A stretch of 64,000 nucleotides of DNA, from assembly GCA_014377485.1 (NCBI GenBank), contig JACMPM010000016.1, positions 1,396 to 65,395 on the forward strand, read 5' to 3'. The translations under genes were made by a program, and so were the position numbers. The notes below the pieces were generated by a model. The model worked only from the letters and a program-made list of their open reading frames with translations. It made no database searches and was not told the origin of the DNA. Origin of the DNA: Bacteriovorax sp. GTDB taxonomy: Bacteria; Bdellovibrionota; Bacteriovoracia; Bacteriovoracales; Bacteriovoracaceae. This document shows, piece by piece, positions 3,113-21,250 of this stretch (its first letter is position 1; the number at the start of each line of letters is the position of its first letter).

Positions 3113-3113
3113 A

Positions 3114-4911: not shown

Positions 4912-7236
4912 ATGAATTTGTTAATAATCCGTTCAGCTGAGTTATCAACCTGGGGTAGTTGCAAGGTAATTTCTCCAAACTTGCAAGCAACATATAAACT
5001 ACTAAGTGATAGGTTCACACTTACATGGTTTGATATTCCGGTTAAATATGTTCAGCAAGAAATAGATTCTTCAAGTTCGCACATCATTGATCTATCTTTA
5101 AAAATAAAAAATGAAAAACCAGATCAGATCATATTCATTGATCATCTTCCAAATCCAGCTGAAATTTTAAATAATCTGTCCTTAGTAATGGAACTAGATC
5201 AACTTCCACCTCTCGTATTTCATATATATGGCGACTTCACTTATTTTTCTAAAGACTGGCTGGAACTAACACCTAAATTAATTAATCATCCTGTTAAGTT
5301 TGTAACGGCTTCTAGTTCACAAAAAAATCTTTTAAGTTATTTTTGCGAAGATTCAAGAGTAATCGAACAATTTTGTTTTCCTGTTAATTCAGAAGAGTAT
5401 TACTTTGATTCAGAAGCCCGCATAAAACTAAGAAAAGAAATGCAAATTAGTGATCAAGACATCGTCATCCTTTACTCTGGCAGAATAAGTCTTCAAAAAA
5501 ATGTAGATGTTTTATTGAAAGAATATTTAAAGTTGATAAAAAACTCTACCCAGTGCATTCACTTGTGGATAGTTGGTGCATTTGACGACCTAGGTGCTCC
5601 ATTTATGGGAGTAGAAACCAACGAAGGCTATTTATATTCTAAATTTGAAAGCATTCTCGCAGGCCATCCCAAAGATTTTATAAATAAGATAAAATTTTGG
5701 GGAATTCAAAATAAAGAAAAATTGAGGGAAATTAAATCCGCGGCTGATCAATTTATAAGCTTAAGTCTTTATCATGATGAAGACTATGGCATGTCTCCTG
5801 CGGAGGCTTTGGCCTGCGGTCTTCCAACCCTGCTGACTGATTGGGGAGGATATTCATCGTTTGCTTCAAAGAATTGGCGCTGCCAACTAATGCCTGTTTC
5901 TATCACAGAATTTGGTCTACAAATTAAAACTTCTGCAATTAAAGAATTTCTAAATACATATCTAGAATGTTACATAAACGATACTGATCGCAAAAGATGG
6001 TCTAATGAATTTTTAAGTCAATTTTCAATAAAAGAAAACGGCTTAAAATTAGAATCTATTCTCTCTACCAGCTTTAGGGTTTTTAAAGGGTTTAACTGGG
6101 CCCTTGCTCCTTTTTCTCAACAATATGGAAAATCGTCAGAACACAAAACACTTAATGCCAATACTGGTCCGTCGGATAAAAATTTTTATTTCCAAGTCTA
6201 TAAAAATTATATTTCCCAAGACGATGCTCCGGATAAAGAGAGTACTTATGACACAATTCAATGGATGTATGACTACATTAAGAATTCTGAGGTTGAGCTT
6301 GTAACGGAAGCAAGAAAAAGCAATCGATCTTATCACCACTACCTTAAACCATTTTCAAAAAATTATTATGGCCCAACGAATCCTGCTCTTTTATTTGATG
6401 GAAAAATTACTACTAAATTAATTGATAAGAAAATTTGGACTTTAAGAGACGGCCTTGTTCCTGTATGCCTTTTCTTCAAAGAACATTTACCTAATAAATT
6501 TGCCGGAGAAATAGCAATTCATAAAAGCTTATGGTTTTTGGTTCCAGATCACTGGAGGGAAAAAGTATTATTTTATGAAATAAAAAATGAAGTTCAATTT
6601 AGCAAATCACAATTGCCTCAGAAAATCTTCATCACTGGTATGCTGAATTCAACTTTAGCCGATCCAGAAGAATTTGACCAAGACTTGGTCAGTTTAAAAG
6701 AAATACTAGGTAAAGAAAATATTGAAAAAATGGAAATCCTTGCTTTTCTTCCAAACAAAAAAGCTAATCTTTGGGGTAGCTGGGAAGAGGAAAATTTATT
6801 GAAATTTTCTCATTCTTTGTTCCGAAACATTAAAAATGAAGTTCAATTTTCTGAATGGCAAAACATTCAATCTGAGACAAATTTTAGTAATTCTCTCTAC
6901 TATGAAATTAATCGTGGCTATTTTATTAAAGATACTTTCACTAAACACTTCGCATTATCAAGAGGTGCCGGTTTACTGAAATCAAGTGTCGTTGAGGTTC
7001 CATGTGAATTGATAAAAACACATAAACTTTCACTCTATCATTCGATTAATATTTATCGTCCTAACTTCACAAAAATTCCCGCTTATATAAATCCTTTTGA
7101 TCATGAATATTTTGAGTATTTTAAAAAATTATTTGAATCAAATACAAAGAACCCAAAGGCTTCAACTTCTTGGGACTCTTGGTTTGCATCATATTTAAAA
7201 AAGTATTACAAACTCTATCCCCCTACTATTCTGTGA
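4912..7236 (+). CDS. large GT-B (GT4/GT1-like) glycosyltransferase with an ~380 aa C-terminal extension of unknown function
   Basis: Motifs GRISLQKNV and EDYGMSPAEALACGLPTLLTDWGGY (EX7E-type motif). There is a 1 nt gap to the upstream gene. Confidence 0.75.
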   Translation: MNLLIIRSAELSTWGSCKVISPNLQATYKLLSDRFTLTWFDIPVKYVQQEIDSSSSHIIDLSLKIKNEKPDQIIFIDHLPNPAEILNNLSLVMELDQLPPLVFHIYGDFTYFSKDWLELTPKLINHPVKFVTASSSQKNLLSYFCEDSRVIEQFCFPVNSEEYYFDSEARIKLRKEMQISDQDIVILYSGRISLQKNVDVLLKEYLKLIKNSTQCIHLWIVGAFDDLGAPFMGVETNEGYLYSKFESILAGHPKDFINKIKFWGIQNKEKLREIKSAADQFISLSLYHDEDYGMSPAEALACGLPTLLTDWGGYSSFASKNWRCQLMPVSITEFGLQIKTSAIKEFLNTYLECYINDTDRKRWSNEFLSQFSIKENGLKLESILSTSFRVFKGFNWALAPFSQQYGKSSEHKTLNANTGPSDKNFYFQVYKNYISQDDAPDKESTYDTIQWMYDYIKNSEVELVTEARKSNRSYHHYLKPFSKNYYGPTNPALLFDGKITTKLIDKKIWTLRDGLVPVCLFFKEHLPNKFAGEIAIHKSLWFLVPDHWREKVLFYEIKNEVQFSKSQLPQKIFITGMLNSTLADPEEFDQDLVSLKEILGKENIEKMEILAFLPNKKANLWGSWEEENLLKFSHSLFRNIKNEVQFSEWQNIQSETNFSNSLYYEINRGYFIKDTFTKHFALSRGAGLLKSSVVEVPCELIKTHKLSLYHSINIYRPNFTKIPAYINPFDHEYFEYFKKLFESNTKNPKASTSWDSWFASYLKKYYKLYPPTIL

Positions 7237-8231
7237 TCACTTTAACTTCTTTTGCAAAAAAAATAATTATAAACATAATTCCAAATAAAATTGGACGATT
7301 TGCTTATGTTGGCATTTTTAATGCCGAATATTTTTTTTCTAAATTATTATTCAGATACAACCTTAAAATGTGGTTTCGAAATAGCTTACTTCAAGATTAT
7401 TTTAGCTTTGGAGTATCAGACATAGACGTAAGCGTGGAGCTGAAAAATAATTTATTAATTCAATCTTTATCTAAGAAGCTCTTTTCTTTTTTAACTCTGT
7501 GCCCTCTTATTAAAGAAGTTAATTTTTATTATCCATTTAGTCTAAAAAAATTGCCTCTTTTGGTAAATTTTTTTGAACTATCTAGAGACCCCGAATTATT
7601 TCACAAGGTCCAAATGGATCAAACCTCATTAGAATTCAAAGAAGCTCAAAAATTTACTTATCTCTTGAGAATGTTCTTCTCTAATCTTAATCAAATTGCA
7701 AAAGGCTTTTCGGAAAGAGACATCGAAAAATGGAGTTTTCATTTAAAGTTAGTGGGACATCCTGAACTCATATCTGCTTTGTCTGGAGTGAAGAATGAAA
7801 AGAATCTTTTAAAAATTATTTTCTCAAGTTTTCCATCTTTTGATAATTCCCACTATGAGACCATTAAACATATCTCACATTGTCATATAATTGAAAAACC
7901 ACTTCATATACAATTCCAAGAGACGAAATTTCCTCAGGAGCTTTTAACGTTGATGCCTCATCTTTTTTGTTTTGCTGATTTGAGGTTGCAAAATATTTCT
8001 CAGCTTGGTCAAAAAGTTTTTATAACTCAAATGTCTTGGGAAATATTGGGCATGCTCACTCAGCCAATGCTATTTGAAGAAGGAAGCCCTGTATTTCAAC
8101 ATTTATTCAATATTAAATCTACATTGTATAAAGCTGCTCTTGAAAATGAAATTTGCGAAAAACGCAGATTGGAATTAATGAAAATTTTAGAAGGATATAT
8201 TGAACTCTTGTATAAAAATCATAAAATTTAA
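7233..8231 (+). CDS. hypothetical protein, possibly nucleotidyltransferase-fold
   Basis: An in-frame GTG at 7233 overlaps the TGA of the upstream gene (GTGA coupling); the track start at 7170 would overlap by 67 nt. The motif FGVSDIDVSVE loosely resembles the pol-beta NTase G[SG]..D.D motif. Confidence 0.4.
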   Translation: MITLTSFAKKIIINIIPNKIGRFAYVGIFNAEYFFSKLLFRYNLKMWFRNSLLQDYFSFGVSDIDVSVELKNNLLIQSLSKKLFSFLTLCPLIKEVNFYYPFSLKKLPLLVNFFELSRDPELFHKVQMDQTSLEFKEAQKFTYLLRMFFSNLNQIAKGFSERDIEKWSFHLKLVGHPELISALSGVKNEKNLLKIIFSSFPSFDNSHYETIKHISHCHIIEKPLHIQFQETKFPQELLTLMPHLFCFADLRLQNISQLGQKVFITQMSWEILGMLTQPMLFEEGSPVFQHLFNIKSTLYKAALENEICEKRRLELMKILEGYIELLYKNHKI

Positions 8232-8234
8232 GAT

Positions 8235-9020
8235 TTATCGCTTTTCAGACTTATCTTCACTGTATTTGAAGCCTCGATATTGTTCGTATGCCTCCTTGAT
8301 ATCGCCATCATAAAGGATTTTTCCCTCACTAATCAAAATTGCACGGTTACAAACACTTTGAATTTGGGTTTCATAATGACTTACAAAAATAACGGCTCTC
8401 GATTTCTCTATAAGCTTACTAATCCTCTCCGAAAGTTTTTCTCGGAAAAATTCATCTGCTCCATCGAAAACTTCATCAAGAATAAGGATGTCAGCAGGCT
8501 TTGAGGACAATAATGAGAGAGTTAATCTTACCAGCATGCCTTTACTATAAGTTTTTATTGGCACATCAATAAACTCTTTCAAATCACTGAATTCTAAACT
8601 TTCATTGATTATGCTTTCCAATTCATTTCGATAATCAGGATAATATATTTCAGCAAGAATCCTGGCATTTTCTCTTCCACTCAATTCTGGATAAAGACCA
8701 ATCGAAGACTCAAACAAAGCGCGAATCTTGCCATGTCTTAAAATTTTTCCGTCTTGAGGTTTATAAAATCCTGAAATGCATCTACAAAGAGTCGATTTAC
8801 CTGCTCCATTAACACCAATTAATCCAACTCGATCACCTTCGTAAATTTTTAGATTAATATTATTCAATGCCAAAAAATAACTTCGATCGTATTTTTTGGA
8901 AAATGGCCCTAACATCGTACTAATAAAAACATCTCTTACACTGGAAGCGGTTATTAACCTTAAAGGAAAAGCTAATTTTAATTCTCGAATATCTAGTAAA
9001 ACTTTTTTTGTGTTAAGCAT
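8235..9020 (-). CDS. ABC transporter ATP-binding protein, Wzt/TagH (polysaccharide or teichoic-acid export) type
   Basis: Walker A GVNGAGKST, signature-like YSKGMLVRL, Walker B ILILDE. It overlaps the upstream permease gene by 8 nt. Confidence 0.85.
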   Translation of the reverse strand: MLNTKKVLLDIRELKLAFPLRLITASSVRDVFISTMLGPFSKKYDRSYFLALNNINLKIYEGDRVGLIGVNGAGKSTLCRCISGFYKPQDGKILRHGKIRALFESSIGLYPELSGRENARILAEIYYPDYRNELESIINESLEFSDLKEFIDVPIKTYSKGMLVRLTLSLLSSKPADILILDEVFDGADEFFREKLSERISKLIEKSRAVIFVSHYETQIQSVCNRAILISEGKILYDGDIKEAYEQYRGFKYSEDKSEKR

Positions 9021-9771
9021 ATAAAATTAAATATTTTTTCATTTTCTTCCAAGTAATAAACGATGCTCCAGCTAACAATCCAGAGAAACCAAATGAGAGT
9101 AAAACACTTGTAAAAAACTCACGATTAGGGCTTTGCATTGTAAGAATCTGAAATGGCTTAATGATATAATAGATGGGATTAAAATCAGCCACAAATCTAT
9201 ATTGTGTTGGAATAAAATGAACTGGATAAAAAATTGGAGTTAAATAAAACAAAAGAGAAAATAAAAAGCTAATGACAAATTTTAAATCTCTCAGAACTAC
9301 ATTTATTGATGCAAAAATTAAACACATTGATCCAACTCCCACTGCTAGAGAAATAATAGGAAGAGGAAGGAAAAAGAATATATTGAGCTTTCCTGGATTT
9401 TTAAAAAGGAAAAGGACAATTAATATAAGAAACGAGCATAAAAAATTAACAAAATTATCCAAAATTTGAGTATAAACCAAGACAAGAGGAGAAACCGGAA
9501 GATTGCGTACAAAATGACTATTCATAACAAATATACTTGTACACATTTCAATGGACTGAATAATGAATAACCATGGTAAAAGTCCTGATAGTAGGAAGGT
9601 GCTATAATTTAAATACTGAATTTTAAAAATAATTGTAAATGCATAGGCCTGCACAGCGAAGGTCAATATTGGATTTATAATAACCCAAAGAAAACCATAA
9701 AATGTATTTCTATACCTAGACTTAAGATTTGCCAGGGTGAGTACATAAATAATTCGCAAATTATTGGGCAT
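9013..9771 (-). CDS. ABC-2 type transporter permease (Wzm/TagG-like)
   Basis: N-terminal LANLKSRYRNTFYGFLWVIINP motif, about six hydrophobic spans, and pairing with the ATPase gene. Confidence 0.8.
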   Translation of the reverse strand: MPNNLRIIYVLTLANLKSRYRNTFYGFLWVIINPILTFAVQAYAFTIIFKIQYLNYSTFLLSGLLPWLFIIQSIEMCTSIFVMNSHFVRNLPVSPLVLVYTQILDNFVNFLCSFLILIVLFLFKNPGKLNIFFFLPLPIISLAVGVGSMCLIFASINVVLRDLKFVISFLFSLLFYLTPIFYPVHFIPTQYRFVADFNPIYYIIKPFQILTMQSPNREFFTSVLLSFGFSGLLAGASFITWKKMKKYLILYA

Positions 9772-9835: not shown

Positions 9836-10678
9836 CTAAGGATTAAAAATATTTTTGTAAATGAGAAAATAGAATAATTTCATATCTTCGGGATGCTTGA
9901 AAAAATCCTTATTTCTTAAATCTTCAAGGAATGGACAAACTAAATCAGTATCATGACATTGCAGTTTTTTGATTTTTTGAATTGAATGATTAGGAGAAAG
10001 CAGATGCTCTGAGAGAATCTTATATTTTGAATTATCTAAGTCTGGCTGGTGTAAGCAAGCACCTTTTGATAAAGCAAGATGAACCAAATAATTATCAAGA
10101 CAAGACCATTGCGATCCTGCTTCAACTATTAAGCAATTTTTAAAAGATGCTTTTTTCTCTAAATCTTTAAGAGATAATGCTTCCGGCAGCAGTCCTAAAT
10201 ATTTCTGAATAAGTTGAAAGTAACTTAGAAGATATTTTTGATCTAGAGAATTATTTGTATCAACATTATAATTATAATGTGCCGATATCTTTAATTTCGA
10301 ATACTTTCGTAAATAATTCTCATGAAACCATTTCAGAAAATCATTCAAGAGCTCTAGTGGTGTTTCGAGAAGATTAATATTAAACAATAATATAAAGGTT
10401 GAATTATCATCAAACTGAACTTCGAAATTATTTTTTATTCTGTAATATTCAGACTGATCTTTAAATAAATCAAATCTAGAAAGTAGAATATGTGGAGTTT
10501 GGGCAATTGAGGAGTCAACAAGCTTATTAAACAATGTGAAAAATAGTCCATCTCGATTTAGCAGCATCGATGAATAATTAAAATATTCAGTCAAATAAAT
10601 ATTCGACGAATCATATCTTTGAGTTAAATCGTTTTCAAGCGACTGTAAATATAATTTTGTCTTCACAATTTTTACCAA
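9836..10678 (-). CDS. hypothetical protein (280 aa)
   Basis: Long ORF that overlaps the upstream glycosyltransferase gene by 7 nt. I recognise no motif. Confidence 0.5.
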   Translation of the reverse strand: MVKIVKTKLYLQSLENDLTQRYDSSNIYLTEYFNYSSMLLNRDGLFFTLFNKLVDSSIAQTPHILLSRFDLFKDQSEYYRIKNNFEVQFDDNSTFILLFNINLLETPLELLNDFLKWFHENYLRKYSKLKISAHYNYNVDTNNSLDQKYLLSYFQLIQKYLGLLPEALSLKDLEKKASFKNCLIVEAGSQWSCLDNYLVHLALSKGACLHQPDLDNSKYKILSEHLLSPNHSIQKIKKLQCHDTDLVCPFLEDLRNKDFFKHPEDMKLFYFLIYKNIFNP

Positions 10679-11910
10679 AAAGATTTATAATATTTTTTAA
10701 AATTTTCTAACGGCTTTTTTCCAGACTCACTTTTAAGCTCAAGTGCAAAAGTTAAAAGTACTTTATCAAAATGGGAAAAAATATTTTTCTTATAAAACAA
10801 ATCTGAAAGAGCACAAAATAATTTATCTTGCCCAATATGTTTTTTAGTTTTTTGAATTAATTTAGCCCTATCCTCTGGCGTTCTCTTGGCAACTTGCTCT
10901 AGGAATATGGCCAATTTCTCTGTCTCGAGATAAAGTTTTTCTTTCTCGAGAACTACATCCATACCAAAACAATCATCAGGAAATTCTTGGCAAAAATCCT
11001 TATATCCGCCCCAATTGCTTACAATGCAGGGAGTTCCTTCGGCCAGCGATTCAATTATTGTATTTCCATAATCTTCATCCAGAAAAGTACTGAAGGAAAT
11101 AACTGCATCGTTGCTTTGGTATAGGAAATTTAGCTCTGCTTCATTTTGATGGGGCAAAATCTTTACCTCAAAAAAACCAGAAAGTTTATTTATTTCTTTC
11201 ACGTATTCATGGAATTGTTCGCCAAGAATTTTCTTTGAATTTATGGTCGTAGGGTTGAAATCATCAAAGTATACGACTAGAGTTAAACAAATCTTTTTTT
11301 CCGTATTTTTAGAAATATCATTTAACGAACTAATAAGACATGTAACATTTTTTTGTTCATGATAGCGGCCTGCATACATCACGTTTAGGACTTCACCTGG
11401 CACTTTAATATTAAGATGCTTTTCACCATCGTCTTTAGAGTTAATAGGAAATGGCAATACGTATATATTTTCTTTTGAAATAAAATTAGCTAAAACCTCA
11501 AAATAACATTTAGATGCAACGACAAATTGAATATTTTTCTTTGTTAACAAATGATTAAGTGAAAACCAATTTTCTCCGTATCTAATAAAATTGCCAAATA
11601 TATGAAAAACAAATTGAGTTTGAACTTCTGTTTTTATACTTAGTAGAGCACTTAAAAAAAGGTGATTTGTAATACCAGGATGAATGATAATGACATGGTC
11701 GGGAGTGTTGTCTTTAAATTGAACAATACGATTTTTAAAATCCGAATCTACACTTTTTTCACTTTCAAGATCCATCAAATCAATTTCTAAAACTTCAAAA
11801 GACTCTTCAGGCAGAGAGAGATATAGCTTAGATAAATTTTGAGATATTCGATTAACACTCTGGATGTCTTCAGTTTTGTGATTTAAGATCCAAACATTTT
11901 TTTTAATCAT
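10672..11910 (-). CDS. GT-B (GT4-like) glycosyltransferase
   Basis: Motifs GRYHEQKNV and EDYGNTIIESLAEGTPCIVSNWGGY. It shares the WGGY block with the 774-aa glycosyltransferase. Confidence 0.8.
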   Translation of the reverse strand: MIKKNVWILNHKTEDIQSVNRISQNLSKLYLSLPEESFEVLEIDLMDLESEKSVDSDFKNRIVQFKDNTPDHVIIIHPGITNHLFLSALLSIKTEVQTQFVFHIFGNFIRYGENWFSLNHLLTKKNIQFVVASKCYFEVLANFISKENIYVLPFPINSKDDGEKHLNIKVPGEVLNVMYAGRYHEQKNVTCLISSLNDISKNTEKKICLTLVVYFDDFNPTTINSKKILGEQFHEYVKEINKLSGFFEVKILPHQNEAELNFLYQSNDAVISFSTFLDEDYGNTIIESLAEGTPCIVSNWGGYKDFCQEFPDDCFGMDVVLEKEKLYLETEKLAIFLEQVAKRTPEDRAKLIQKTKKHIGQDKLFCALSDLFYKKNIFSHFDKVLLTFALELKSESGKKPLENFKKYYKSFW

Positions 11911-11918
11911 GTGAAACT

Positions 11919-12827
11919 CTATTTCACAATATAGGGACTAATAAGTCCCAAACTGAACATTTCAAAGGGATGAATTTCGCCATAATATTCATTCGATCTC
12001 CAACATTGATTTGTATTATCAAAATCAAACCACGGAGACACTCCACAGATCATATGAATCCTGTCTATGGAGTCTATTTTTTTACAAAAAGGTCTATGAT
12101 TTTTTCCAGAATCATAAACATATGCATACCCCTGATCCATCGAGAATTCGTCTATTTCAAGTTCTTCACCTTCTGAATCCTTTATTATTTGGATAGAGTA
12201 ATTAGATGAAGTTTGAATCGGAATGTTCACTCTTAAGTTAAGAAATATTAGCTCATCATTATGCCAGCAAAAATTGAATTTAGTTGTTTCCTCTCTTCCT
12301 GCCTTGATTGTTGAAATTCTTGATCGAACCAATGTACGTTCAAACGAATCAAGAAATTTTTTAACATGCAAATGATTCGAAATTGGAGTTCTTTCAACAA
12401 ATGAATAAGTGTCATGATAAGAGTTGCGATAAGAATTTTTTCCATTCAAATCGCCTGTATAAAATGAAGCTGAATTCCCTTTCAATGAACTAGATCCAAG
12501 TGTAGCCAAATGTGGGTCAAGCGATATTTTATCATGTGCTGATGGATTCCAAGTTAAAGAGGATGAAACATAGGGTCCGTTTTCAGATAAAGCAACATTT
12601 CCGTATTTAAACTGATGGAGGCCATATTTAGTAATGCCATCAAGGATTGATTCTATAAGTAATTGAAAATCAAAATTAATTTTTTCCTTTCTAATAATAT
12701 TGGAATTGAAATGTGAAAATGTTTCGATTTTTTTCTTGATATCTGTAAACTTAAAAATATATTCGTGTATGGCCATATTGCCGGGGATATCTGACAGAGA
12801 AATGACCCAACGATCTTTGCTGGACAC
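11919..12827 (-). CDS. putative Fe(II)/2-oxoglutarate oxygenase, aspartyl/asparaginyl beta-hydroxylase-like cupin
   Basis: Pattern CWHNDE..LRVNIPIQT..G.AYVYDS.KNHRP..DRIHMI resembles the AspH/LpxO family (H.D ... H ... R.hL). GTG start in a TAGTG overlap with the PqqD-like gene. Confidence 0.5.
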   Translation of the reverse strand: MSSKDRWVISLSDIPGNMAIHEYIFKFTDIKKKIETFSHFNSNIIRKEKINFDFQLLIESILDGITKYGLHQFKYGNVALSENGPYVSSSLTWNPSAHDKISLDPHLATLGSSSLKGNSASFYTGDLNGKNSYRNSYHDTYSFVERTPISNHLHVKKFLDSFERTLVRSRISTIKAGREETTKFNFCWHNDELIFLNLRVNIPIQTSSNYSIQIIKDSEGEELEIDEFSMDQGYAYVYDSGKNHRPFCKKIDSIDRIHMICGVSPWFDFDNTNQCWRSNEYYGEIHPFEMFSLGLISPYIVK

Positions 12828-13135
12828 TAACTCTCCTTCAAAGTCTGCGGCGAATTGTGAAATTCAATTAGGGAATTATTTTGCAAGTCAGTTAAAAGAA
12901 CATCAATCTCTTCGTTAAAATAATTTGACTGCAACTTCATTTCAACTTCAAATTCTTTGATAACTTGTTCTAATGATTTTATTCCATTAAATCTATGACA
13001 TAAATTTGCTGCGAAACCGTCTAATTTATATCCACGATTATTTTTGCTATTAAAGATGTAGAAATGAGATTTGTTTTTATTATAGTCTTGTATGGGATCG
13101 GCCAAAAGAATAGGAAAAAGTTTTAACTTATCCAT
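12827..13135 (-). CDS. PqqD-family peptide chaperone (RiPP recognition element-like)
   Basis: 102 aa. The segment YIFNSKNNRGYKLDGFAANLCHRFNGIKSLEQVIKEF...EIDVLLTDLQNNSLIEF fits the PqqD pattern (LN..a..iw..ldG..t..ei ... fl..L...gli). Confidence 0.7.
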   Translation of the reverse strand: MDKLKLFPILLADPIQDYNKNKSHFYIFNSKNNRGYKLDGFAANLCHRFNGIKSLEQVIKEFEVEMKLQSNYFNEEIDVLLTDLQNNSLIEFHNSPQTLKES

Positions 13136-13138
13136 AAA

Positions 13139-13309
13139 CTAGTAACCACCACCATAAGATGAATTCGAACCAGTAGTACCTACTAATAAAGTAACTATTT
13201 GTGCAGCAGTCAAAGGGGCTAGAGAGCCAAACTGGAGCTTTTCAGTTTTAGAATCAGCGTTAGCAGTTGCGCTGTCTTCATTATTGTTTTTTGGATCTTC
13301 ATTATTCAT
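13139..13309 (-). CDS. 56-aa candidate precursor peptide MNNEDPKNNNEDSATANADSKTEKLQFGSLAPLTAAQIVTLLVGTTGSNSSYGGGY
   Basis: Translated by hand: ATG at 13309-13307, TAG at 13141-13139. It is absent from the ORF track because it is under 60 aa. The stop lies 3 nt from the PqqD-like ATG. Confidence 0.6.
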   Translation of the reverse strand: MNNEDPKNNNEDSATANADSKTEKLQFGSLAPLTAAQIVTLLVGTTGSNSSYGGGY

Positions 13310-13395
13310 TCATTTACCATAATTCAATACCTATCATTTAATATATTGCAATATTAATTTTAAATCTACAAAAATCTTATATTGACGGACAAACC

Positions 13396-13411
13396 AGCAA
13401 AATTGCTACCA
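13396..13411 (-). promoter_or_regulatory. candidate sigma-54 (-24/-12) promoter TGGTAGCAATTTTGCT
   Basis: GG and GC elements have the canonical 12-nt register (consensus TGGCACG-N4-TTGCW). It lies about 88 nt upstream of the peptide ATG, in the only sizeable intergenic gap of the operon. Confidence 0.3.
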
Positions 13412-13470
13412 CGGAGTATTTCTGCCTCGTGAGTTGTATTTAATCAATTTGCCTCTTAAAGTTGCTAATA

Positions 13471-14139
13471 TTAAGTAAATATTGTTCTATTTTTCATCGG
13501 GTGAACTTCATCCGTAGGGCCCCAGTCAGTATCGGGATGAAAGGCAATGACGTTCATAGATTCGCCATAAGTATTAAACTTGTGTGCAACAAGCGCTGGT
13601 ATAAAAAAACAATCGCCAATATTGAGCTTTTGGCTCCTATCTTCACTCACGCTTTCTCCATGACCTGAGACTACTATTCCAAACCTAAAGCTAGGATGAT
13701 AATGAGAAGTCTGATTTGTATTTTTAGGAAAATGAAGCAAATTTAGGCAAGGCTCCCCTAAGCGACTAGGAGAAATTAACAAAGTATCGCTGCAGCCATT
13801 TATATAATTTAATCGTCCAGTGGGCTCTATAGGACCGCCTACCATATTCAAGCAACTGTAGAAATTAATTTCGATTATCACTGCTTTACTATTTTGATCT
13901 AACTTTATTTTTACTGGTGCTTTTTGAGAAAAGTACATTCCCGGTAAAACATCCGAAGAATAGAATTCATTGCTAATTTTGGCATTTCCTTGTTGAAGAA
14001 AGAAAAATACAGAGCCGTTTTTATATGAGTATTCTTCCTCCCTCCCCATCGTTTGCTTTAGTGCTAAATTAAAACTTCCGATGTCTAGGACAACAGTTTT
14101 AGAAAATTTTTGATTGGTAATTAAAACAACATTCTGCAT
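13471..14139 (-). CDS. cupin domain protein
   Basis: Cupin motifs SHYHPSFRFGIVVSGHG and IGDCFFIPALVAHKFN. Confidence 0.65.
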   Translation of the reverse strand: MQNVVLITNQKFSKTVVLDIGSFNLALKQTMGREEEYSYKNGSVFFFLQQGNAKISNEFYSSDVLPGMYFSQKAPVKIKLDQNSKAVIIEINFYSCLNMVGGPIEPTGRLNYINGCSDTLLISPSRLGEPCLNLLHFPKNTNQTSHYHPSFRFGIVVSGHGESVSEDRSQKLNIGDCFFIPALVAHKFNTYGESMNVIAFHPDTDWGPTDEVHPMKNRTIFT

Positions 14140-14391
14140 CTGCCAATGATCCTATATTTTAAACGATGATTAAGCATTACAAAAATTTCATACAATGCAA
14201 TTGACTTAAAAATAAGATGAGCAAATCAATGGATGTTACTTCATGATCTGAGGACTTTCATTACTCAAATTCGGAAGATAGTTGTAGAAAAAAAAAGAAA
14301 AATATATTACTATTTTTGAGTTGTAAGCCAACTTGTAACTGTTCCTTGCAACAATTTCGACAAGATAAAATTTTCACATAAACGAACCTAA

Positions 14392-16692
14392 ATGAAATTT
14401 AAAAAATTAATAAGTAATTCAATATTAAAAAATATAATGATCGTTTTAGGTATTTTAATTGTATTTGCATTTTTTGCAAACCCTAGGTTTTTATTTAATA
14501 AAACTGTTTTTTATAATTTTCAAAGTAGAGATATCCAAAGAGGATTCAGACTTTTTAATGGGCATCCTATATTCTACGGTCCAGAAATGACAGGTGGAGG
14601 AAATCTCCCAGGGCCTTTATATTATTTTTTAATAAGTATTGCTCTGCGTTTTAAGGGTGGTTGGATCGGTGTATGGTTAATGCAATATATTCTCGCGTCA
14701 ATATCAGCAATTATTGGTGCATATTATTTCTGGTCTAAAACTTCTAAGATAATTTCATTAACGTGGATAATTTTTTTTTCCACGGCCTTATTTACTTCGT
14801 TTTATATAACGCAATTTTTAAATGTTAGCTCAATGCTATGTTTTACAGTAGCAGCCCTAGTGTTTATCAATAAAGCATTTACAGAAGATGATCTGGAAAA
14901 AAGGAACAGAAATTTTATTCTTGCATGCTTCACGATAGGACTCGGAATTCAACTTCACCTCTCAATCATCTGCTTAATTTTTGCACTATTCTTTATGCAA
15001 TTTTTCGCATTTAAGCTTAAATTGGTACCACTGCCGTCTAGACCTGTTTGGTTGGGACTATCGGCTTTCATGCTACCAATTATTCCTTATCTCACTTGGT
15101 TATTATTTTCAAAACTTGGCGCACAATTTGGAGTGCCAGCTTTTTACGCTGGTGCTACTGATCAAGCATTTGCAAGCAACGCTTATCTGTTAAAACTAGG
15201 GATGAATGAGCCATGGTCTAAGATTTTAATAGATTCGCTCAAAAAAATTTTTATCACTTTTCCGTTACCTTTATTTCTTTTGATTGCTGTACAATTATTG
15301 TCCAGAAGTAAGATGAAGGTCGCCAAATTTAAACCAATATTGATTTGCTTAATTTTTGCTTTTGTTCCATATGCATTTTGGTATTTCTCAACCCAGGCTT
15401 ATCGATATTCAATGCCTTTTTATCTTTCTTTAATTTTTATAACTATGTTTTTTTTAAACGATATAAAAGATTCATCTAAAAAAATCATGATTTTTAACTC
15501 CATTGCACTTTTTGTGCAAATTATTATTTCATTTTTTGTTCTTTTTTATTCTCCAAAAATAAATATTCTTGGATTTTTAATATCTAATACCGCTATTGTT
15601 ATTTTAATTACACTATTTGTATTTTTTATTGAAAAAAACAGATGGAAAACTGGACGTGGATTTATTTTAAGCCTAATTCTCGCGCTTACTTTGCAAAATG
15701 ATCAGAAATATCTCCATCAATCTATAGGTGAATTCGTCGGGTATATGCCTAACAAGTCAGAATGGACTGATATCTGGACTACAATATTCAATCAAACTGG
15801 GTGGAGTTACGAGGAAGCAAAAAATAAAATATATTATATAGACCATCATATAAGTCAAGATCCTGAATTGTTTTTAAGAAGCTTTAATTATCACAAGGAG
15901 CTTCAAAAAATACTACTCTCTCCGGATGGTTTTTTTGTATCCTACAGTTATGGTAATTCTTCAAGAAACCGTGAAGGGGGTCTAGTTAAGCCACAGGATT
16001 GGCTTTTAAAGCAAAATCTTCATCTAGATATAATTACCGCCTTAAAGAATGGTGAAATTAGGCTTGGTGAAAATATTTCAAAGTTAAATTTAATTATTCC
16101 CTTCTGGGTAACCAACTCAAATAAAATACCTAAACATTTTCACAATGTCGGTGAGGGATATCAAGCTTCTGAAGATGATAAGCGTTTAGCAGAGGTTCCA
16201 GAAGATCAAGGTATAAAAAAAATTGGTCCTAATACGTTTTTATTTAAATGGAACGAAAGCCCTGACAAGAATTCCTTTTGTTCAACAGGAGCAATCGTTA
16301 ATGTAATAAAAAAAAATAAAGATTATCAGATTAATATTAAAATTATTGGTTCTACAATTTCTCAAATGACTCCATGGGTGAGTCCAGCATGGACGCAAGC
16401 CTGGATCTCCCCTTATTTAGAAATAATGTGTGATACACAAATAAAAAGATTTATCATTTCGGAATCTGTTGGCTTTAGACGTAAATATACTCATAACAAA
16501 TGGGATCCATTGTTTACGGGAAATAATTCTATCATTGGTCCTTTTGAAAAAAATATTAATTTTTCCTGTAACGGTCCAATTACATTTTTGCGACTTGGGA
16601 GAAAAGGGTCTACGGTTGATAAAATTAGAAGTGTTAAAGAATTACCTCCCAAAAGCTTAGAAATTAATTTGAGAACATACAAGTTTATTTAA
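14392..16692 (+). CDS. polytopic membrane protein, GT-C (ArnT/PMT_2)-like N-terminal half plus ~300 aa soluble C-terminal domain; paralog A
   Basis: More than 10 hydrophobic spans. The loop motif FYGPEMTGGGNLPGPLYYFL resembles the PMT_2/ArnT first loop. Full-length paralog of 18194-20500. Confidence 0.4.
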   Translation: MKFKKLISNSILKNIMIVLGILIVFAFFANPRFLFNKTVFYNFQSRDIQRGFRLFNGHPIFYGPEMTGGGNLPGPLYYFLISIALRFKGGWIGVWLMQYILASISAIIGAYYFWSKTSKIISLTWIIFFSTALFTSFYITQFLNVSSMLCFTVAALVFINKAFTEDDLEKRNRNFILACFTIGLGIQLHLSIICLIFALFFMQFFAFKLKLVPLPSRPVWLGLSAFMLPIIPYLTWLLFSKLGAQFGVPAFYAGATDQAFASNAYLLKLGMNEPWSKILIDSLKKIFITFPLPLFLLIAVQLLSRSKMKVAKFKPILICLIFAFVPYAFWYFSTQAYRYSMPFYLSLIFITMFFLNDIKDSSKKIMIFNSIALFVQIIISFFVLFYSPKINILGFLISNTAIVILITLFVFFIEKNRWKTGRGFILSLILALTLQNDQKYLHQSIGEFVGYMPNKSEWTDIWTTIFNQTGWSYEEAKNKIYYIDHHISQDPELFLRSFNYHKELQKILLSPDGFFVSYSYGNSSRNREGGLVKPQDWLLKQNLHLDIITALKNGEIRLGENISKLNLIIPFWVTNSNKIPKHFHNVGEGYQASEDDKRLAEVPEDQGIKKIGPNTFLFKWNESPDKNSFCSTGAIVNVIKKNKDYQINIKIIGSTISQMTPWVSPAWTQAWISPYLEIMCDTQIKRFIISESVGFRRKYTHNKWDPLFTGNNSIIGPFEKNINFSCNGPITFLRLGRKGSTVDKIRSVKELPPKSLEINLRTYKFI

Positions 16693-16728
16693 AGAAGATA
16701 TTCATACTTCAAGATATAGATTTTTTTA

Positions 16729-18180
16729 CTACTCCGTTTCTTCCCTACACGGATACACCATTTTGTTTTTGATTTGAATCATCGCTATCTCGTCAACGTT
16801 TTCTTCCAAAAATGACGTAATTTCTGGATTTTTATCGTAAACATCCCGCAACTCATCAGGGTCATTTATTAAATCGTAAAGAAATTTTTTTTCATTTTTT
16901 AAATTCCAAACAAACTTCCACTTGTTTTTATAACGAATTGATTTAATGTCGTTTGCACAATTTCTGGAATATATTAGAGGATGATTGTTTTCTTTTTGGA
17001 TATATTCTTCAAAATTCTCTTCATTAATTTTACCTTCGATTATTTTATTAACTATATTTGCAATTCCTTGTTGATAAAATTGTGCGTTTATTATTTTTCT
17101 CTCATGCTGACCCGGAAATTTTATAAACAAAGGAAACTTTATCATTTCATCAAATACTGTTTCTCCATGAGCCATGTATTCGTGTTGAAAAAAAGCTTCT
17201 CCATGGTCTCCTGTAAAAATTAAAACCGTATTCTCTGCAAGTTCTTTGTCGTTATATAATTTTAAAAGTTCTTCTATCGAGCTGTCATAAATTTCCAACA
17301 TTTTATCATATGTTTCTTTAATTACATTTAAATCTGTTTCAAAAAAACTGGAAGACTTCCACTTGGCTAAAATACTTCGGTTATTTAATATACCAATAAA
17401 AGTTGGTGAATATTTTTTTTCCTTGAGACTCTTCGCTATTTGGTTATCTAGTTTTAATGTTTTTATTACTGCTTCTGTAAGCGTTTTTTTACGCTCCATA
17501 ACATATAAACTAAATGGAACTCTCTCTGGGTATTTGTCAAAGTTTTCAATATATTCTTCAATATAGCTTTGAGATTTAGGACTTATTAATTTCAGGATAT
17601 GATTTCCGGGGCCTAACTGCTTTGCGTAAGGAAGATGAATTATTTTATTATGGACTTCTATTAGAAATGGCCAATTTTTTTTATCCTGAAGTTTCTTCTT
17701 TAGGAATTGTAATCCATCAAGATAATTTCTAGGCATGTTGTTAAATATAATACTGTTATTTGGAATATTCATATAGTACTCAGGAATATTTTTGCCATTT
17801 ATTTGTTGCCAAGCAATTTCTTCTTTAGACCATGGTAACCCAATCGCATGGTATCCATTTTTTACTAGATTTGAGGATGGAATTCGCGACAAGAAGCCCG
17901 AGACGTTTGACCAAGACATATCTGTAATTGCATTATTAAAAACATAACTTTCTTCCGCTAGCTTATCTACATTCGGAGTTGAGTGGAATGCTGAATTGTA
18001 TACACTAAGTCGACTTGTACTTAGTGAGCAAGTACTTAGAACCAAAACATTATAACGCTTACGTTTGTTATTTTTTTGAATAAAAATAAATATTCCGACT
18101 AAGCTCAGTAGTGCTACGATACTAACGAAATATTTTTTTCGAGCATACATATTTTGTGTAAATCTTTTATACATAATCAA
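16729..18180 (-). CDS. membrane-anchored sulfatase-like hydrolase/transferase (alkaline phosphatase superfamily)
   Basis: N-terminal TM segment, FTGDHGEAF metal-site motif, and C-terminal FLYDLINDPDEL typical of PF00884-type proteins. Confidence 0.65.
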   Translation of the reverse strand: MIMYKRFTQNMYARKKYFVSIVALLSLVGIFIFIQKNNKRKRYNVLVLSTCSLSTSRLSVYNSAFHSTPNVDKLAEESYVFNNAITDMSWSNVSGFLSRIPSSNLVKNGYHAIGLPWSKEEIAWQQINGKNIPEYYMNIPNNSIIFNNMPRNYLDGLQFLKKKLQDKKNWPFLIEVHNKIIHLPYAKQLGPGNHILKLISPKSQSYIEEYIENFDKYPERVPFSLYVMERKKTLTEAVIKTLKLDNQIAKSLKEKKYSPTFIGILNNRSILAKWKSSSFFETDLNVIKETYDKMLEIYDSSIEELLKLYNDKELAENTVLIFTGDHGEAFFQHEYMAHGETVFDEMIKFPLFIKFPGQHERKIINAQFYQQGIANIVNKIIEGKINEENFEEYIQKENNHPLIYSRNCANDIKSIRYKNKWKFVWNLKNEKKFLYDLINDPDELRDVYDKNPEITSFLEENVDEIAMIQIKNKMVYPCREETE

Positions 18181-18193
18181 ACCAATGCAATTT

Positions 18194-20500
18194 TTAAATA
18201 TTTATTTTTAAATATTTCTCAGGCAATTTTTTAACACGCGTAATCATTTCAACAAATGATCCACTTCGACCTAGTCCAATTTCCTTAATCCCATTTTTGC
18301 AAGAAAATTCAAATCTTCTTTCAAACGGACCCACAAAAGAATTATTTCCCTGCAAAATGGGGGTATTTACATCCTGGCTATTAGATCGATTGAAACCTAT
18401 TGAGGAAGCGATTGAAAATTGCTTTCTTTCATTGTTTCCACACTTTAATTCTAAATAAGGAGCTATCCATGCTTGAGTCCAATTTGGTGCAACCCATGGC
18501 GTGATTTGAGAAAGGGTTGAGCCGATAATTTTAATATTTATTAAATAATTAAAATCATCTTTTTTCCATAATTCGATGATGGCCCCCGTAGAGCTGAATT
18601 CATTTTGATCTGGGTTTTCATTCCATTTAAAAAGATATTTATTTGAGCCAATGCTTTTCACACCCTCTGTACCTTGTATCGTTCCAAGTATTTTATCATC
18701 AAAAGACAATCTATAACCCTCTCCAAGATTATGGAAATGTTGTGGGATATTATTTTTATTTGTTATCCAGTAAGGCGTAATCAAAATTTCATTAGAAATA
18801 TTTTCCCCTAAACGAATATCTCCATTTTTTACAGACTGTAAAACTTCTGGTTGCATATTTTGTTTCATTATCCAATATTTTGCTGGAGCCAAAGGACCAA
18901 AATTTTTTTGCCAGGAAGCTCGGTAGTAGATTGATACAAAAAATCCATCTGGCACGTTAGCGGCTATTGGTCTAGAATGAATTTCATTTTTAAAATCAGT
19001 CAATACTAACTCTGGGGCTTGCTCTAAATGGTGCCCTATGTAAAAAATTCTAGTCCTTGCTTGATCATAACTCCAACCAGTTTCACGATTTATAGATGTC
19101 CAAATCTTTTTCCAAAGTGCGTATCTGGGCATGTTAAAGTTTCGAATACGAAATGTACCAATTTGTTCTAGCGATTTTTGCGTGTGAGTTAACGAAATCA
19201 TTAGGGCAAAGCTACAAAGAAATGCGTTCCCACGTTTTCGAAAATTGATATCTATGATCAAGATCAGCGTGATCAAAAAAAACATCAAAATAAAACAATA
19301 TACAATAATTGATTTAAACTGATTACTATTTTTATGATAAATAACTATCCATAATGATAATTGGATGATGATTCCAATAAAATTAAAAATTTTAACTTTT
19401 TTAGTTGATAGAATTAAGTAATCATATAAGTACAATGTTGTGAAGCTTACGCTTATCATAAAGGGCAATGTGTACCTGGCCGCTTGTGGAGAAAAGAAAA
19501 GTTCAATTACTGGCAAGCTAGAAATAATTAAGCAAACAATCAGTGGTTGCATCTTATTTTTTAATTCCTCTTTCGCAAGTTTATTAATATCACGAAAAAA
19601 TAAAAAATGAATTGGCAATAATATTAACATTGGAAAGGGAACCAATCCGAACATAATATTTATTATCACATTGCTTAAAGGCATTTGGTCACCAAACGAC
19701 ATTAAATGCAATAAACTTAAAGGTGCATTAGATGATTCACCTGAATAAAAACTAGGTACTCCGAAAGGAAGTTTTAGTTTTATAAATAAAATCCACGTTA
19801 AATATGGAATAGACGGAATAAGAAAAAACACCACCCCTTTGGCAATAACTTTTTTAGGAACTGAATATAAGTCTAACTTTTTTGATAAAATATTCAAAAT
19901 AATCATTGCTATAAAATAGCAAATAATTGAAAAGTGAAATTGCAATCCAAGTCCAATAATAAAAGACGCCCAAAGATAAGCTTTGTTTTTTGTTTCGATA
20001 CTATTTTTTTTATCATAAACCTCCTGAATAAAAACAAGAGAGAAGACTGTAAATATAATCATTGAACTGACATTTAAAAATATTGCAAGATAATTAAAGG
20101 TAAATGGAGCAAGTGAGAAAAGAATGATCCACATCAGTGCATTCACTCGAGATCCTTTTAAATAAAAATATAACGTTCCTCCAGCCCCTGCCATAACGGC
20201 AAGTATATATTGCATAACCCAAGCACTGACCCAACCAAAACTAAACATCTGTGAAATTGACAAGAAAATATAATAAAGTGGCCCCGGTAAGTTTCCTCCT
20301 CCAGTCATTTCAGGCCCATAAAATATTAAATTACCTTTTAAAATATTTCTTGCCCGAATAATATCTCGATGCTGAAAGATGTAAAAAATAGTATTATCAA
20401 ACAGATCAAAAGCGTTTATACAAATGGTAAACACTAGTGCAATACTCGCTAAGAATATTATAAATTTTAGTACATCATTTTTCCAAATTTTCTTTAACAA
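18194..20500 (-). CDS. polytopic membrane protein, GT-C-like; paralog B
   Basis: Shares FYGPEMTGGGNLPGPLYY, IRLGENIS, FLFKWNE.PD, INIKIIGST.SQ.TPWV.P.WTQAWI.PYLE with 14392-16692. Confidence 0.4.
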   Translation of the reverse strand: MLKKIWKNDVLKFIIFLASIALVFTICINAFDLFDNTIFYIFQHRDIIRARNILKGNLIFYGPEMTGGGNLPGPLYYIFLSISQMFSFGWVSAWVMQYILAVMAGAGGTLYFYLKGSRVNALMWIILFSLAPFTFNYLAIFLNVSSMIIFTVFSLVFIQEVYDKKNSIETKNKAYLWASFIIGLGLQFHFSIICYFIAMIILNILSKKLDLYSVPKKVIAKGVVFFLIPSIPYLTWILFIKLKLPFGVPSFYSGESSNAPLSLLHLMSFGDQMPLSNVIINIMFGLVPFPMLILLPIHFLFFRDINKLAKEELKNKMQPLIVCLIISSLPVIELFFSPQAARYTLPFMISVSFTTLYLYDYLILSTKKVKIFNFIGIIIQLSLWIVIYHKNSNQFKSIIVYCFILMFFLITLILIIDINFRKRGNAFLCSFALMISLTHTQKSLEQIGTFRIRNFNMPRYALWKKIWTSINRETGWSYDQARTRIFYIGHHLEQAPELVLTDFKNEIHSRPIAANVPDGFFVSIYYRASWQKNFGPLAPAKYWIMKQNMQPEVLQSVKNGDIRLGENISNEILITPYWITNKNNIPQHFHNLGEGYRLSFDDKILGTIQGTEGVKSIGSNKYLFKWNENPDQNEFSSTGAIIELWKKDDFNYLINIKIIGSTLSQITPWVAPNWTQAWIAPYLELKCGNNERKQFSIASSIGFNRSNSQDVNTPILQGNNSFVGPFERRFEFSCKNGIKEIGLGRSGSFVEMITRVKKLPEKYLKINI

Positions 20501-20566
20501 TATTACCTACTTTTCAATCTCATACCAAAACTCATTTAATAGATCATTGTTCTTTCATTACTAATT

Positions 20567-21169
20567 CTAAAAAATAAGTCTTGGAATTGTTAACAGATTA
20601 AGACTAACAAAATTATTTTCAAAAAATAATTGGATTTTTTCTAAGGAGGTCTCTGTCGGACTAAAGTAATCTACAATCAATAAATATCTCTTATTTTTGT
20701 CTCTGTAAAAAGCCGTTGCACGTTTAAAAATTGGTTTATTTTTCTGACAAATACATAATGCAAATCTCTCATCCACATATGCTGTTACAAAAGAGCTTTT
20801 CGCCAGATTGTAAATCTTAGGCATATATTCCTGACGACATGCTTCAGCCATTTCAGCTTTTCCATTAAATGCTAAAGAAGTGAAATGAAATTGTGAAAAC
20901 CTTGTTTTTAAACTTTGGTTCAACATTTCAGTTGCTTGTTCTTGATTTTTTACAGTTATCATTTGTATTTTTATAGAATTTCCACTTTTATTTTTAGCGA
21001 TAACAATATTGGGCTCTAGAGATTCATAAAAAGTATTATATTCCCCGCCAAAAGAAATCGGTATTTCATGATCCTCTAATCGCTTTTCAAAACGATTTTT
21101 GGTGCATGAAAACAACAGAAGCAAAAAAAAAAGAATGATAGAAATCTTATTTTTTAACATTTTAAGCAA
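20567..21169 (-). CDS. lipoprotein of unknown function; paralog of 30738-31403
   Basis: Signal peptide with lipobox LLFSC. Shares the ERFALCICQ block with the 30738 ORF (ERLALSICQ). Confidence 0.55.
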   Translation of the reverse strand: MLKMLKNKISIILFFLLLLFSCTKNRFEKRLEDHEIPISFGGEYNTFYESLEPNIVIAKNKSGNSIKIQMITVKNQEQATEMLNQSLKTRFSQFHFTSLAFNGKAEMAEACRQEYMPKIYNLAKSSFVTAYVDERFALCICQKNKPIFKRATAFYRDKNKRYLLIVDYFSPTETSLEKIQLFFENNFVSLNLLTIPRLIF

Positions 21170-21250
21170 ATTTTTATGCCTGGTTTACATATTGAAGTAT
21201 TTTACGTAAAAAATTATAATTTATATCTTTTTCGTAATCAAGGATTACTT

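Follow-up and report, generated by a model that had tools for sequence, protein, structure and literature searches.

The open reading frame (ORF) at 13139-13309 on the minus strand of the 64,000-nucleotide (nt) stretch of Bacteriovorax sp. DNA analysed here (contig JACMPM010000016.1 of assembly GCA_014377485.1, positions 1,396 to 65,395; hereafter the window) consists of 56 codons and a TAG stop. Its translation, its homologues and the signature of purifying selection together indicate that it is a genuine conserved gene. We consider it quite probable that it encodes the precursor peptide of a pathway of the RiPP type (ribosomally synthesised peptides that are modified after translation), dependent on a RiPP recognition element (RRE) and so far seen only in Bacteriovoracaceae, the family of Bdellovibrionota to which Bacteriovorax belongs. 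The peptides of this family are probably glycosylated and oxidised. The locus has two features that are generic to RRE-dependent RiPP precursors, namely a short ORF beside recognition and tailoring genes and, within that ORF, a conserved leader with a diversifying core.

The small ORF and its homologues

Minus-strand translation of 13309-13139 gives MNNEDPKNNNEDSATANADSKTEKLQFGSLAPLTAAQIVTLLVGTTGSNSSYGGGY*, with the ATG at 13309-13307 and the TAG at 13141-13139; a TTT triplet follows and then the ATG of a 102-amino-acid (aa) ORF, a spacing of 3 nt between the peptide stop and the start of the next gene. A preliminary description of this region had given the ORF and its spacing exactly, and had called it unannotated, which does not hold: NCBI lists the peptide as hypothetical protein H7281_04415 of a Bacteriovorax sp. 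metagenome-assembled genome (MAG), and the ORF is also gene-called in the Logan assembly of run SRR9661224. The G+C content of the window is 33%, at which by our own calculation about 7% of random codons are stops and the chance of 56 open codons is ~1.4%; many off-frame ORFs of similar size are present in the window. ORF length by itself is weak evidence of a gene, and we regard this one as real because it is conserved across homologues. Over a 16-codon motif pooled from 14 loci, the proportions of synonymous and nonsynonymous differences were pS = 0.80 and pN = 0.18. Synonymous sites are saturated and the amino acids are held, which argues for coding selection in the peptide frame. The peptide itself had no match in Pfam, NCBIfam and PDB sequence searches except a sub-threshold one to DUF4402 (E = 0.026), and an Rfam scan of 12000-14500 gave no match.

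About 25 homologues of 50-73 aa share the same architecture, all of them from Bacteriovoracaceae assemblies. A word-indexed search of 5.8 billion proteins gave six close ones (55-60 aa, 64-82% identity), in which the N-termini are variable with indels and the C-terminal 36 residues are nearly invariant. Genomic loci, designated here by L numbers, were fetched through the neighbouring 302-aa protein discussed below (36 loci) and through the peptide motif (3 more), and 13 further peptide genes were recovered from the fetched syntenic loci. Every Bacteriovoracaceae locus among them derives from a MAG or from an uncultured assembly. When all 1.84 billion cluster representatives were searched with a profile under HMMER's own filters, 8 matched at E <= 1e-3 and 6 of these are real peptides of 55-73 aa; with six real matches in a search of that size, the peptide family is rare and lineage-restricted. 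The other two, the repeat-rich proteins P0101 and P0103, were dropped from the family as spurious. The peptide alignment was also run against metagenomes, where only 3 of the 85 matches to the pattern were confirmed.

Homologues and alignment bear out the earlier proposal that this is a genuine small gene in three parts. The N-terminus (residues 1-26) is variable, acidic and Asn-rich. Codons 27-44 (FGSLAPLTAAQIVTLLVG; 13178-13231, minus strand) carry the conserved leader motif: across a 17-sequence alignment covering three core types the invariant positions are M1, F27, G28, P32, T34, Q37, I38, L41 and Y56, and the motif that describes the whole family is FGxLxPLTxxQ[IV]xxL. The hydrophobic segment had been put forward as a possible leader, in agreement with the invariant positions from F27 to L41, and we infer that codons 27-44 are the RRE-binding segment. 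The boundary between leader and core is provisionally placed where conservation stops, which leaves codons 45-56 (TTGSNSSYGGGY; 13142-13177, minus strand) as the proposed type-1 core, a part that differs between types and ends on the invariant Tyr. That C-terminal Tyr, already singled out in the preliminary description, is present in every homologue and always follows Gly or Cys.

At least five core variants ending in Tyr stand behind the constant motif. The type 1 core, that of the window, reads GTTGSNSSYGG(G)Y; type 2 reads PSSPAGAGACY and type 3 NSDNSAGACACAC(AC)GGPCY. Another core ending in Tyr, listed beside types 1 and 2, is NSDNSAGACACACGGPCY, and further variants are NSLNASAGPCAGPCGACGPCSGPCY, KSDSTFAGPCGY and KSDLALGGACACACACACGGPCY. 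The type-1 core of the window has no Cys, while relatives of types 2 and 3 do. The Cys-rich cores (L009, L014, L041, P0100, P0104) are built of short repeats, (AC)n and (GPC)n, and the repeat number differs between close relatives, AC occurring three, four or five times; this suggests that cores diversify by repeat expansion or contraction.

A conserved element lies upstream of the ATG (13340-13374, minus strand). It consists of TTTTTGTAGATTTAAA (13374-13359), N6 and ATTGCAATATATT, contains within the latter a -10-like TATATT (13345-13340), and stops 30 nt short of the ATG. The window, L003, L004, L005, L039 and L040 have near-identical copies of TTT(T)TGTAGATTTAAA, and L011 has a weaker one; (A/C)TTGCnnTATAnT follows it after N6 in most of these loci, and the -10-like part is clearest in the window, L004, L005, L039 and L040. 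The element is strongly conserved although the adjacent coding DNA is saturated at synonymous sites, and it is probably a promoter or regulator site specific to the peptide operon. It was found by locus comparison; a generic sigma-70 and terminator scan called no minus-strand promoter in the intergenic region. Type-3 loci show TTGTGCTAT(C/G/A)AT instead, which resembles an extended -10 box.

There is no strong consensus Shine-Dalgarno sequence at the peptide ORF. The TAG-TTT-ATG junction, offered earlier as an argument for co-translation, is indeed present in the window and is not a constant of the family: the spacing between peptide and RRE genes is 0-34 nt in types 1 and 2, and type-3 loci have the RRE gene first, then ~130-150 nt, then the peptide gene. 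In the window, the GGG of the tail is encoded as GGT GGT GGT, and these codons make up a GGTGGTGG stretch (13142-13160, minus strand) 9-16 nt before the RRE start codon. This stretch could double as the ribosome-binding site of the RRE gene, which would tie the C-terminal codons of the peptide to RRE translation.

Recognition element and oxygenase

Judged by its profile matches and predicted structure, the 102-aa neighbour (12827-13135, minus strand) is very probably a PqqD-type RRE, as the preliminary description had supposed. The window protein aligns to Pfam PqqD (PF05402) over profile positions 4-67 of 67 with a sub-threshold E = 0.017. The same profile is matched by 21 of 21 family members at E <= 0.1 (best 9.7e-7), is precomputed on three homologues, and is annotated on the homologues in L042, L044 and L045. 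A PDB search with the single 102-aa sequence gave nothing significant; with the family profile the best PDB match was PqqD itself (3g2b, E = 0.006). The AlphaFold2 (AF2) model has a predicted local distance difference test score (pLDDT) of 84 and a winged-helix core of three strands and three helices (strands 24-29, 34-39 and 90-93, plus 7-10; helices 41-47, 55-65 and 74-86). The top Foldseek match of this model is TbiB1 with leader (5v1v; template modelling (TM) score 0.68/0.77, root-mean-square deviation 2.3 A), and most other top matches are PqqD, lasso B1, TigE, SuiB, CteB and MibB. In the window, and in 18 of the 20 other loci with a peptide gene that were inspected, no more than 1.5 kb separates that gene from an RRE gene.

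The 302-aa protein that follows (11919-12827, minus strand) is a predicted non-haem Fe/2-oxoglutarate (2OG) oxygenase-fold enzyme. Its GTG start overlaps the RRE stop (TAGTG), with AAGGAG upstream. It had no match in Pfam or NCBIfam (in Pfam down to E <= 10), and a PDB search with the single sequence gave nothing significant. The assignment comes from the AF2 model (pLDDT 92), from Foldseek and from invariant residues. Foldseek returned 63 PDB matches at E <= 1e-3, and among the 50 listed almost all are 2OG oxygenases; they include 7v4o (3e-9) and proline hydroxylases, with AspH (5apa) distant at 4.5e-4 and a TM score of 0.35. The protein has 69 homologues, and in 35 oxygenase sequences W188, H189, D191, E192, H244 and R256 are invariant, giving an HxD...H...R signature. 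The fold, the metal triad and the basic 2OG residue of the Fe(II)/2OG oxygenase superfamily are thus all found in the predicted enzyme. The preliminary description had proposed an Asn beta-hydroxylase; the 302-aa protein has the 2OG-oxygenase fold but no profile match to the Asp/Asn beta-hydroxylase family PF05118. Furthermore, most type-2 cores have no Asn, which excludes Asn hydroxylation as the reaction common to the family.

Most core types have the oxygenase in their company. Its family also occurs outside Bacteriovoracaceae at 29-35% identity (L018-L036), the carriers being Ferrovibrio, Bradyrhizobium denitrificans LMG 8443, Azospirillum, Betaproteobacteria, Verrucomicrobiales and Rickettsiales MAGs. 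In Ferrovibrio the oxygenase gene stands directly after a conserved 504-aa gene, the product of which we suspect from its N-terminal sequence to be an MlrC/M81-type peptidase. Three type-2 clusters (L013, L015 and L016) have in addition a 198-aa Asp_Arg_Hydrox gene (PF05118, E = 3e-7; for example L016:10668-11264) and a third radical S-adenosylmethionine (rSAM) enzyme of 368 aa. The window has neither gene, and the cores of these three loci contain no Asp or Asn.

Gene order, radical SAM sets and other cluster genes

The genes for the peptide, RRE, oxygenase, a GT4-family glycosyltransferase, a 280-aa protein and an ABC-2 (ATP-binding cassette) exporter are collinear in L003, L004, L005, L011, L039 and L040. 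The same six loci have convergent genes for a 353-aa protein, a 774-aa glycosyltransferase fusion and a twitch-domain rSAM enzyme, to which L039 and L040 add an rSAM-SPASM gene. The earlier picture of a cluster with an oxygenase, glycosyltransferases and rSAM enzymes is upheld by Pfam, NCBIfam and Foldseek. L042, which has a divergent peptide, holds the same families in another order: M16, glycosyltransferase fusion, 353-like, ABC ATPase, ABC-2 permease, rSAM, peptide, PqqD, oxygenase, rSAM, cupin. Type-3 loci are ordered rSAM, RRE, peptide, and L045 is ordered rSAM, peptide, rSAM, RRE, glycosyltransferase.

The set of rSAM enzymes changes with the core. In the Cys-rich relatives of types 2 and 3 an rSAM gene lies directly before the RRE and peptide genes, and two rSAM families, rSAM447 (~447 aa) and rSAM577 (~577 aa), are present in loci of every Cys-containing core type: both in L009, L013, L014, L016, L041, L042, L045 and L046, and one only in L012. 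Neither is found in the window or, within the fetched flanks, in the type-1 loci, which have instead the rSAM-SPASM and twitch rSAM enzymes, the latter also in L016. If the substrate is the peptide tail, such co-variation of the rSAM set with core chemistry is what one would expect.

In the window the rSAM-SPASM enzyme is spread over two plus-strand ORFs at 1724-3491, a radical SAM part (1724-3112; Pfam Radical_SAM, 7e-14) and a SPASM part (3087/3114-3491; Pfam SPASM, 8e-13), and it lies 10 kb from the peptide in the convergent operon. At the junction (3087-3116) a TAA occupies 3110-3112; after one A comes an in-frame ATG at 3114, and GGGAGA stands at 3100-3105. In L039 and L040 the gene is a single continuous ORF, relative to which the window has an insertion of ~29 codons with a frame change at the junction; a genuinely split gene, pseudogenisation and faulty assembly are all possible causes. 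For the 462-aa rSAM protein, a PDB sequence search gave no match, and no RRE was detected in its N-terminus by hhalign with a single sequence, a comparison of low sensitivity. The twitch rSAM enzyme (471 aa, 3495-4910, plus strand), with an N-terminal twitch domain, matches NCBIfam NF033640 over the full profile length at 328.6 bits against a cut-off of 170, and is conserved in the type-1 loci as well as in L016.

Two glycosyltransferases belong to the conserved set. The 412-aa GT4/GT1-family enzyme (10672-11910, minus strand; Pfam Glycos_transf_1, E = 8e-12) is syntenic after the oxygenase in L003, L004, L005, L011, L012, L013, L016, L039 and L040. It is followed by the 280-aa protein (9836-10678, minus strand), which has conserved synteny and no detectable family: Pfam and PDB searches, profile searches included, gave no match. 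By a tblastn cross-match the latter is homologous to the C-terminal domain of the 774-aa fusion (4912-7236, plus strand; Pfam Glycos_transf_1, E = 5e-18), a GT4 glycosyltransferase joined to a 280-aa-like domain. The fusion has a homologue near the peptide gene in most of the longer loci and with every core type (L003, L004, L005, L009 in part, L011, L013, L015, L016, L039, L040, L041, L042, L045). The 774-aa protein appears to equal the separate 412-aa GT4 enzyme and 280-aa protein fused, and the cluster thus has two paralogous modules of GT4 plus 280-aa-like domain (4912-7236, plus strand; 9836-11910, minus strand). The 774-type protein is itself split in two in L016, L041 and L045.

The ABC-2 exporter (8235-9771, minus strand) comprises a permease at 9013-9771 and an ATPase at 8235-9020 by Pfam ABC2_membrane and ABC_tran; by NCBIfam it is Wzm/Wzt-, DrrAB- and LanFEG-like, and it is kept in the type-1 loci and in the rearranged L042. 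The last gene of the convergent operon encodes the 353-aa protein (7170-8231, plus strand), which has no Pfam match and is conserved in L003, L004, L005, L011, L039, L040 and L042.

At the other end, an M16-family peptidase-like ORF (6-1655, plus strand; Pfam Peptidase_M16_C) has no stop before its ATG at 6 and is probably truncated at the edge of the window. Of the two M16 domains the window shows just the 'inactive' C-terminal one; the counterpart in L042, an M16 protein of 860 aa, has both, and the window protein aligns to its last 543 residues. M16 homologues lie within 10 kb of the cluster in L006, L012, L013, L015 and L016, at 68-75% identity compared with 44-55% for the cluster oxygenase in the same loci, and since its identity is so far above that of the oxygenase the M16 gene may simply be a conserved neighbour. 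Its product is thus a candidate for the leader peptidase, with cluster membership uncertain.

Directly upstream of the probable peptide promoter stands a 222-aa cupin_2 protein (13471-14139, minus strand; Pfam Cupin_2, E = 4e-9), homologues of which flank the cluster in L003, L039 and L042. None of the loci has a homologue of the gene after it (766 aa, 14392-16692), and for this reason the cluster edge is likely to lie near 14139. The block at 14392-22744 contains membrane proteins of 766 and 768 aa, one with a weak TMEM260/PMT-like match, a 200-aa ORF free of family matches and two sulfatase-family proteins. The 766-aa protein and the sulfatase-family genes of this block were rejected as part of the cluster, the four proteins tested having no syntenic homologue except one weak sulfatase match (L004), and it looks like a separate envelope-modification locus.

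Described pathways, alternative explanations and the proposed route

In mycofactocin biosynthesis the precursor MftA ends in ...GVY and is served by the RRE MftB, the rSAM-SPASM enzyme MftC and the glycosyltransferase MftF. The Bacteriovorax system shares with it a short precursor whose C-terminal Tyr is obligatory and follows a small residue, an adjoining stand-alone PqqD-type RRE gene, and rSAM-SPASM and glycosyltransferase genes in the cluster. It differs in that the RRE is coupled to a 2OG oxygenase rather than to an rSAM enzyme, the glycosyltransferases are GT4 and not GT2, an ABC-2 exporter is present, MftD and MftE were not found, and the cores are 10-25 residues long and conserved within a type. 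We rejected membership: the peptide matches no NCBIfam model, its tail is GGGY, and the best rSAM matches were to unrelated families well below cut-offs. The MftA/MftC analogy drawn in the preliminary description consequently fails, as no MftC or PqqE model is among the rSAM matches and the rSAM-SPASM gene is both distant and split.

Likeness to the pathway of pyrroloquinoline quinone (PQQ; PqqA, PqqD, PqqE, PqqF) lies in PqqD, the closest sequence family of the 102-aa protein, and in the nearby rSAM-SPASM enzyme and M16 peptidase. Here, in contrast, a PqqA-like motif is missing, and the cluster has glycosyltransferases and an exporter. PQQ membership was rejected, with PqqA, PqqB, PqqC and PqqE all missing from the Pfam and NCBIfam matches of the cluster proteins. 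Lasso peptides share leader recognition, in that a B1-type RRE with leader (TbiB1) is the best structural match of the RRE model, and by this model the leader-binding mode is likely to be the same as in lasso RREs. The lasso leader motif is YxxPxL, unlike the FGxLxPLT found here, and lasso membership was rejected because the B2 cysteine protease and the Asn-synthetase-like cyclase are not among the Pfam domains of the cluster proteins.

The rSAM RiPPs with SPASM/twitch maturases (sactipeptides, ranthipeptides) likewise combine RRE-dependent rSAM enzymes with a small precursor, whereas the enzyme adjoining the RRE here is a 2OG oxygenase. The window core TTGSNSSYGGGY has no Cys, thioether chemistry is therefore impossible in it, and membership of these classes was rejected. 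RiPP pathways that use Fe/2OG oxygenases, of which CinX-type Asp hydroxylation is one, resemble this system in that a non-haem Fe/2OG enzyme acts, here by prediction, on a ribosomal peptide. The differences are that no Pfam or NCBIfam model covers the 302-aa family and that, by sequence, it stands outside the AspH family.

Several results weigh against an RRE-guided RiPP pathway in the form put forward here. The match of the window 102-aa protein to Pfam PqqD is sub-threshold (15.9 bits against a gathering threshold of 23.4), and its small model gives weak Foldseek E-values, none better than 0.014. Few leaders are as hydrophobic as the conserved segment, which directly abuts the core, and this leaves room for a membrane-associated role. 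Among type-1 homologues the core is almost unchanging, which suits a cofactor or signal better than an antimicrobial that diversifies. In L041 and L045 the oxygenase gene does not adjoin the peptide gene, and outside Bacteriovoracaceae, Alphaproteobacteria included, no peptide or RRE gene stands beside the oxygenase gene in the upstream region inspected; the oxygenase family is therefore not intrinsically peptide-modifying, and its ancestral substrate may not have been this peptide. No leader protease of a kind usual for RiPPs, for example C39, S8 or lasso B2, was found, and with its rSAM-SPASM gene split the pathway could be partly degenerate in this genome.

The most serious rival, unlikely in our estimate, is that the peptide is a sacrificial scaffold for a small Tyr-derived molecule in the manner of mycofactocin or PQQ, with only the C-terminal residues cross-linked or decarboxylated, cut out by a peptidase and glycosylated, and the product a cofactor-like or signalling compound rather than a peptide of 10-25 residues. 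The invariant Tyr after Gly or Cys in every homologue would be explained by this, as would the company of a stand-alone PqqD-type RRE, an rSAM-SPASM enzyme, a nearby M16 (PqqF-type) peptidase and glycosyltransferases, MftF being the enzyme that glycosylates mycofactocin. MftC is cited in PMC12871766 as oxidatively decarboxylating a C-terminal Tyr. Against such a scaffold, the peptide and rSAM proteins match none of the MftA, MftC, PqqA and PqqE NCBIfam models, and PqqB, PqqC, MftD and MftE were not seen in Pfam or NCBIfam among the scanned cluster proteins. Moreover, whole cores are kept within types (TTGSNSS; AC and GPC repeats), which would be needless if the last two residues sufficed, and the conserved gene set includes a dedicated ABC-2 exporter.

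A good deal less probable as product of the ORF is a small protein, tail-anchored or associated with the membrane, that would do its work without modification, for instance as an accessory subunit of, or acceptor for, glycan and ABC-2 machinery. The transporter is closest to Wzm/Wzt polysaccharide exporters, GT4 enzymes are typical of glycan assembly, and the most hydrophobic 19-residue stretch of the peptide, LQFGSLAPLTAAQIVTLLV, reaches a Kyte-Doolittle mean of 1.52. The usual threshold for a transmembrane call is 1.6; all three types stay under it, and the apolar run is broken by the invariant Pro and Gln and, in types 2 and 3, by Lys. A transmembrane helix was rejected on these two grounds, and a membrane protein would leave unexplained both the close linkage to RRE and rSAM genes and the co-variation of rSAM enzymes with the Cys content of the tail. 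Least credible of all is a chance frame or a regulatory upstream leader ORF of irrelevant amino-acid sequence. The ORF is short, lies in AT-rich DNA and lacks a strong Shine-Dalgarno sequence or a sigma-70 call, but its amino acids are conserved despite saturated synonymous sites, which effectively refutes this idea; length and architecture are also kept in ~25 homologues, some of them on the other side of the RRE gene, and the region has no Rfam match.

Under the RRE-guided RiPP reading that we prefer, the operon would be transcribed from the conserved promoter-like element ~30 nt upstream of the ATG. The variable acidic N-terminus would be dispensable filler, and FGSLAPLTAAQIVTLLVG (residues 27-44) would be the recognition sequence bound by the 102-aa RRE, which would hand the core at the C-terminus (approximately residues 45-56, TTGSNSSYGGGY) on to the cluster's tailoring enzymes. 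Coupled in translation to the RRE, the oxygenase would oxidise the core; Tyr is the only core residue common to all types, and the leading guess is therefore Tyr hydroxylation or oxidative decarboxylation. For the latter, both 2OG-dependent (plant) and rSAM-dependent precedents at a C-terminal Tyr are named in PMC12871766, and an alpha-ketoglutarate dioxygenase that acts in a RiPP pathway by macrocyclisation is attributed to Xia et al. 2025, as cited in PMC12710340. The two GT4 enzymes may O-glycosylate Ser, Thr, Tyr or a newly introduced hydroxyl, and since the GT4 fusion accompanies the peptide so consistently, glycosylation probably belongs to the core steps. The rSAM-SPASM and twitch rSAM enzymes probably act on the Cys-free YGG(G)Y tail, through a C-C or C-O cross-link or another radical modification. 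The M16 peptidase may remove the leader, and the ABC-2 transporter would export the product.

We regard the pathway as a candidate new RiPP family of the RRE-guided kind and not as a surprise in kind. A full-text literature search found no description of this system. More tentatively, and with slightly less than an even chance in our view, it may be a new RiPP class confined to the predatory Bacteriovoracaceae, in which an RRE delivers a Tyr-ended peptide to an oxygenase and GT4 enzymes with interchangeable rSAM modules for cores without Cys and for Cys-rich ones, and the exported, glycosylated and oxidised product, of a chemistry unlike that of described classes, possibly serves predation or signalling.

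The Bacteriovoracaceae lineage consists of obligate bacterial predators and, to our knowledge, has almost no characterised secondary metabolism. If the reading is right, the genes presented here would define the precursor family of a ribosomal natural product not described before, together with the complete and compact set of genes for it. They would also give a first functional context to the oxygenase family and to the 280-aa and 353-aa proteins, all of which lack Pfam and NCBIfam annotation. The invariant C-terminal Tyr points to a specific and testable chemistry, and the core types paired with different radical SAM sets offer a natural comparison by which modifications could be assigned to enzymes. 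The pathway is small enough for heterologous reconstitution, and we regard it as a well-supported lead that is accessible to experiment.

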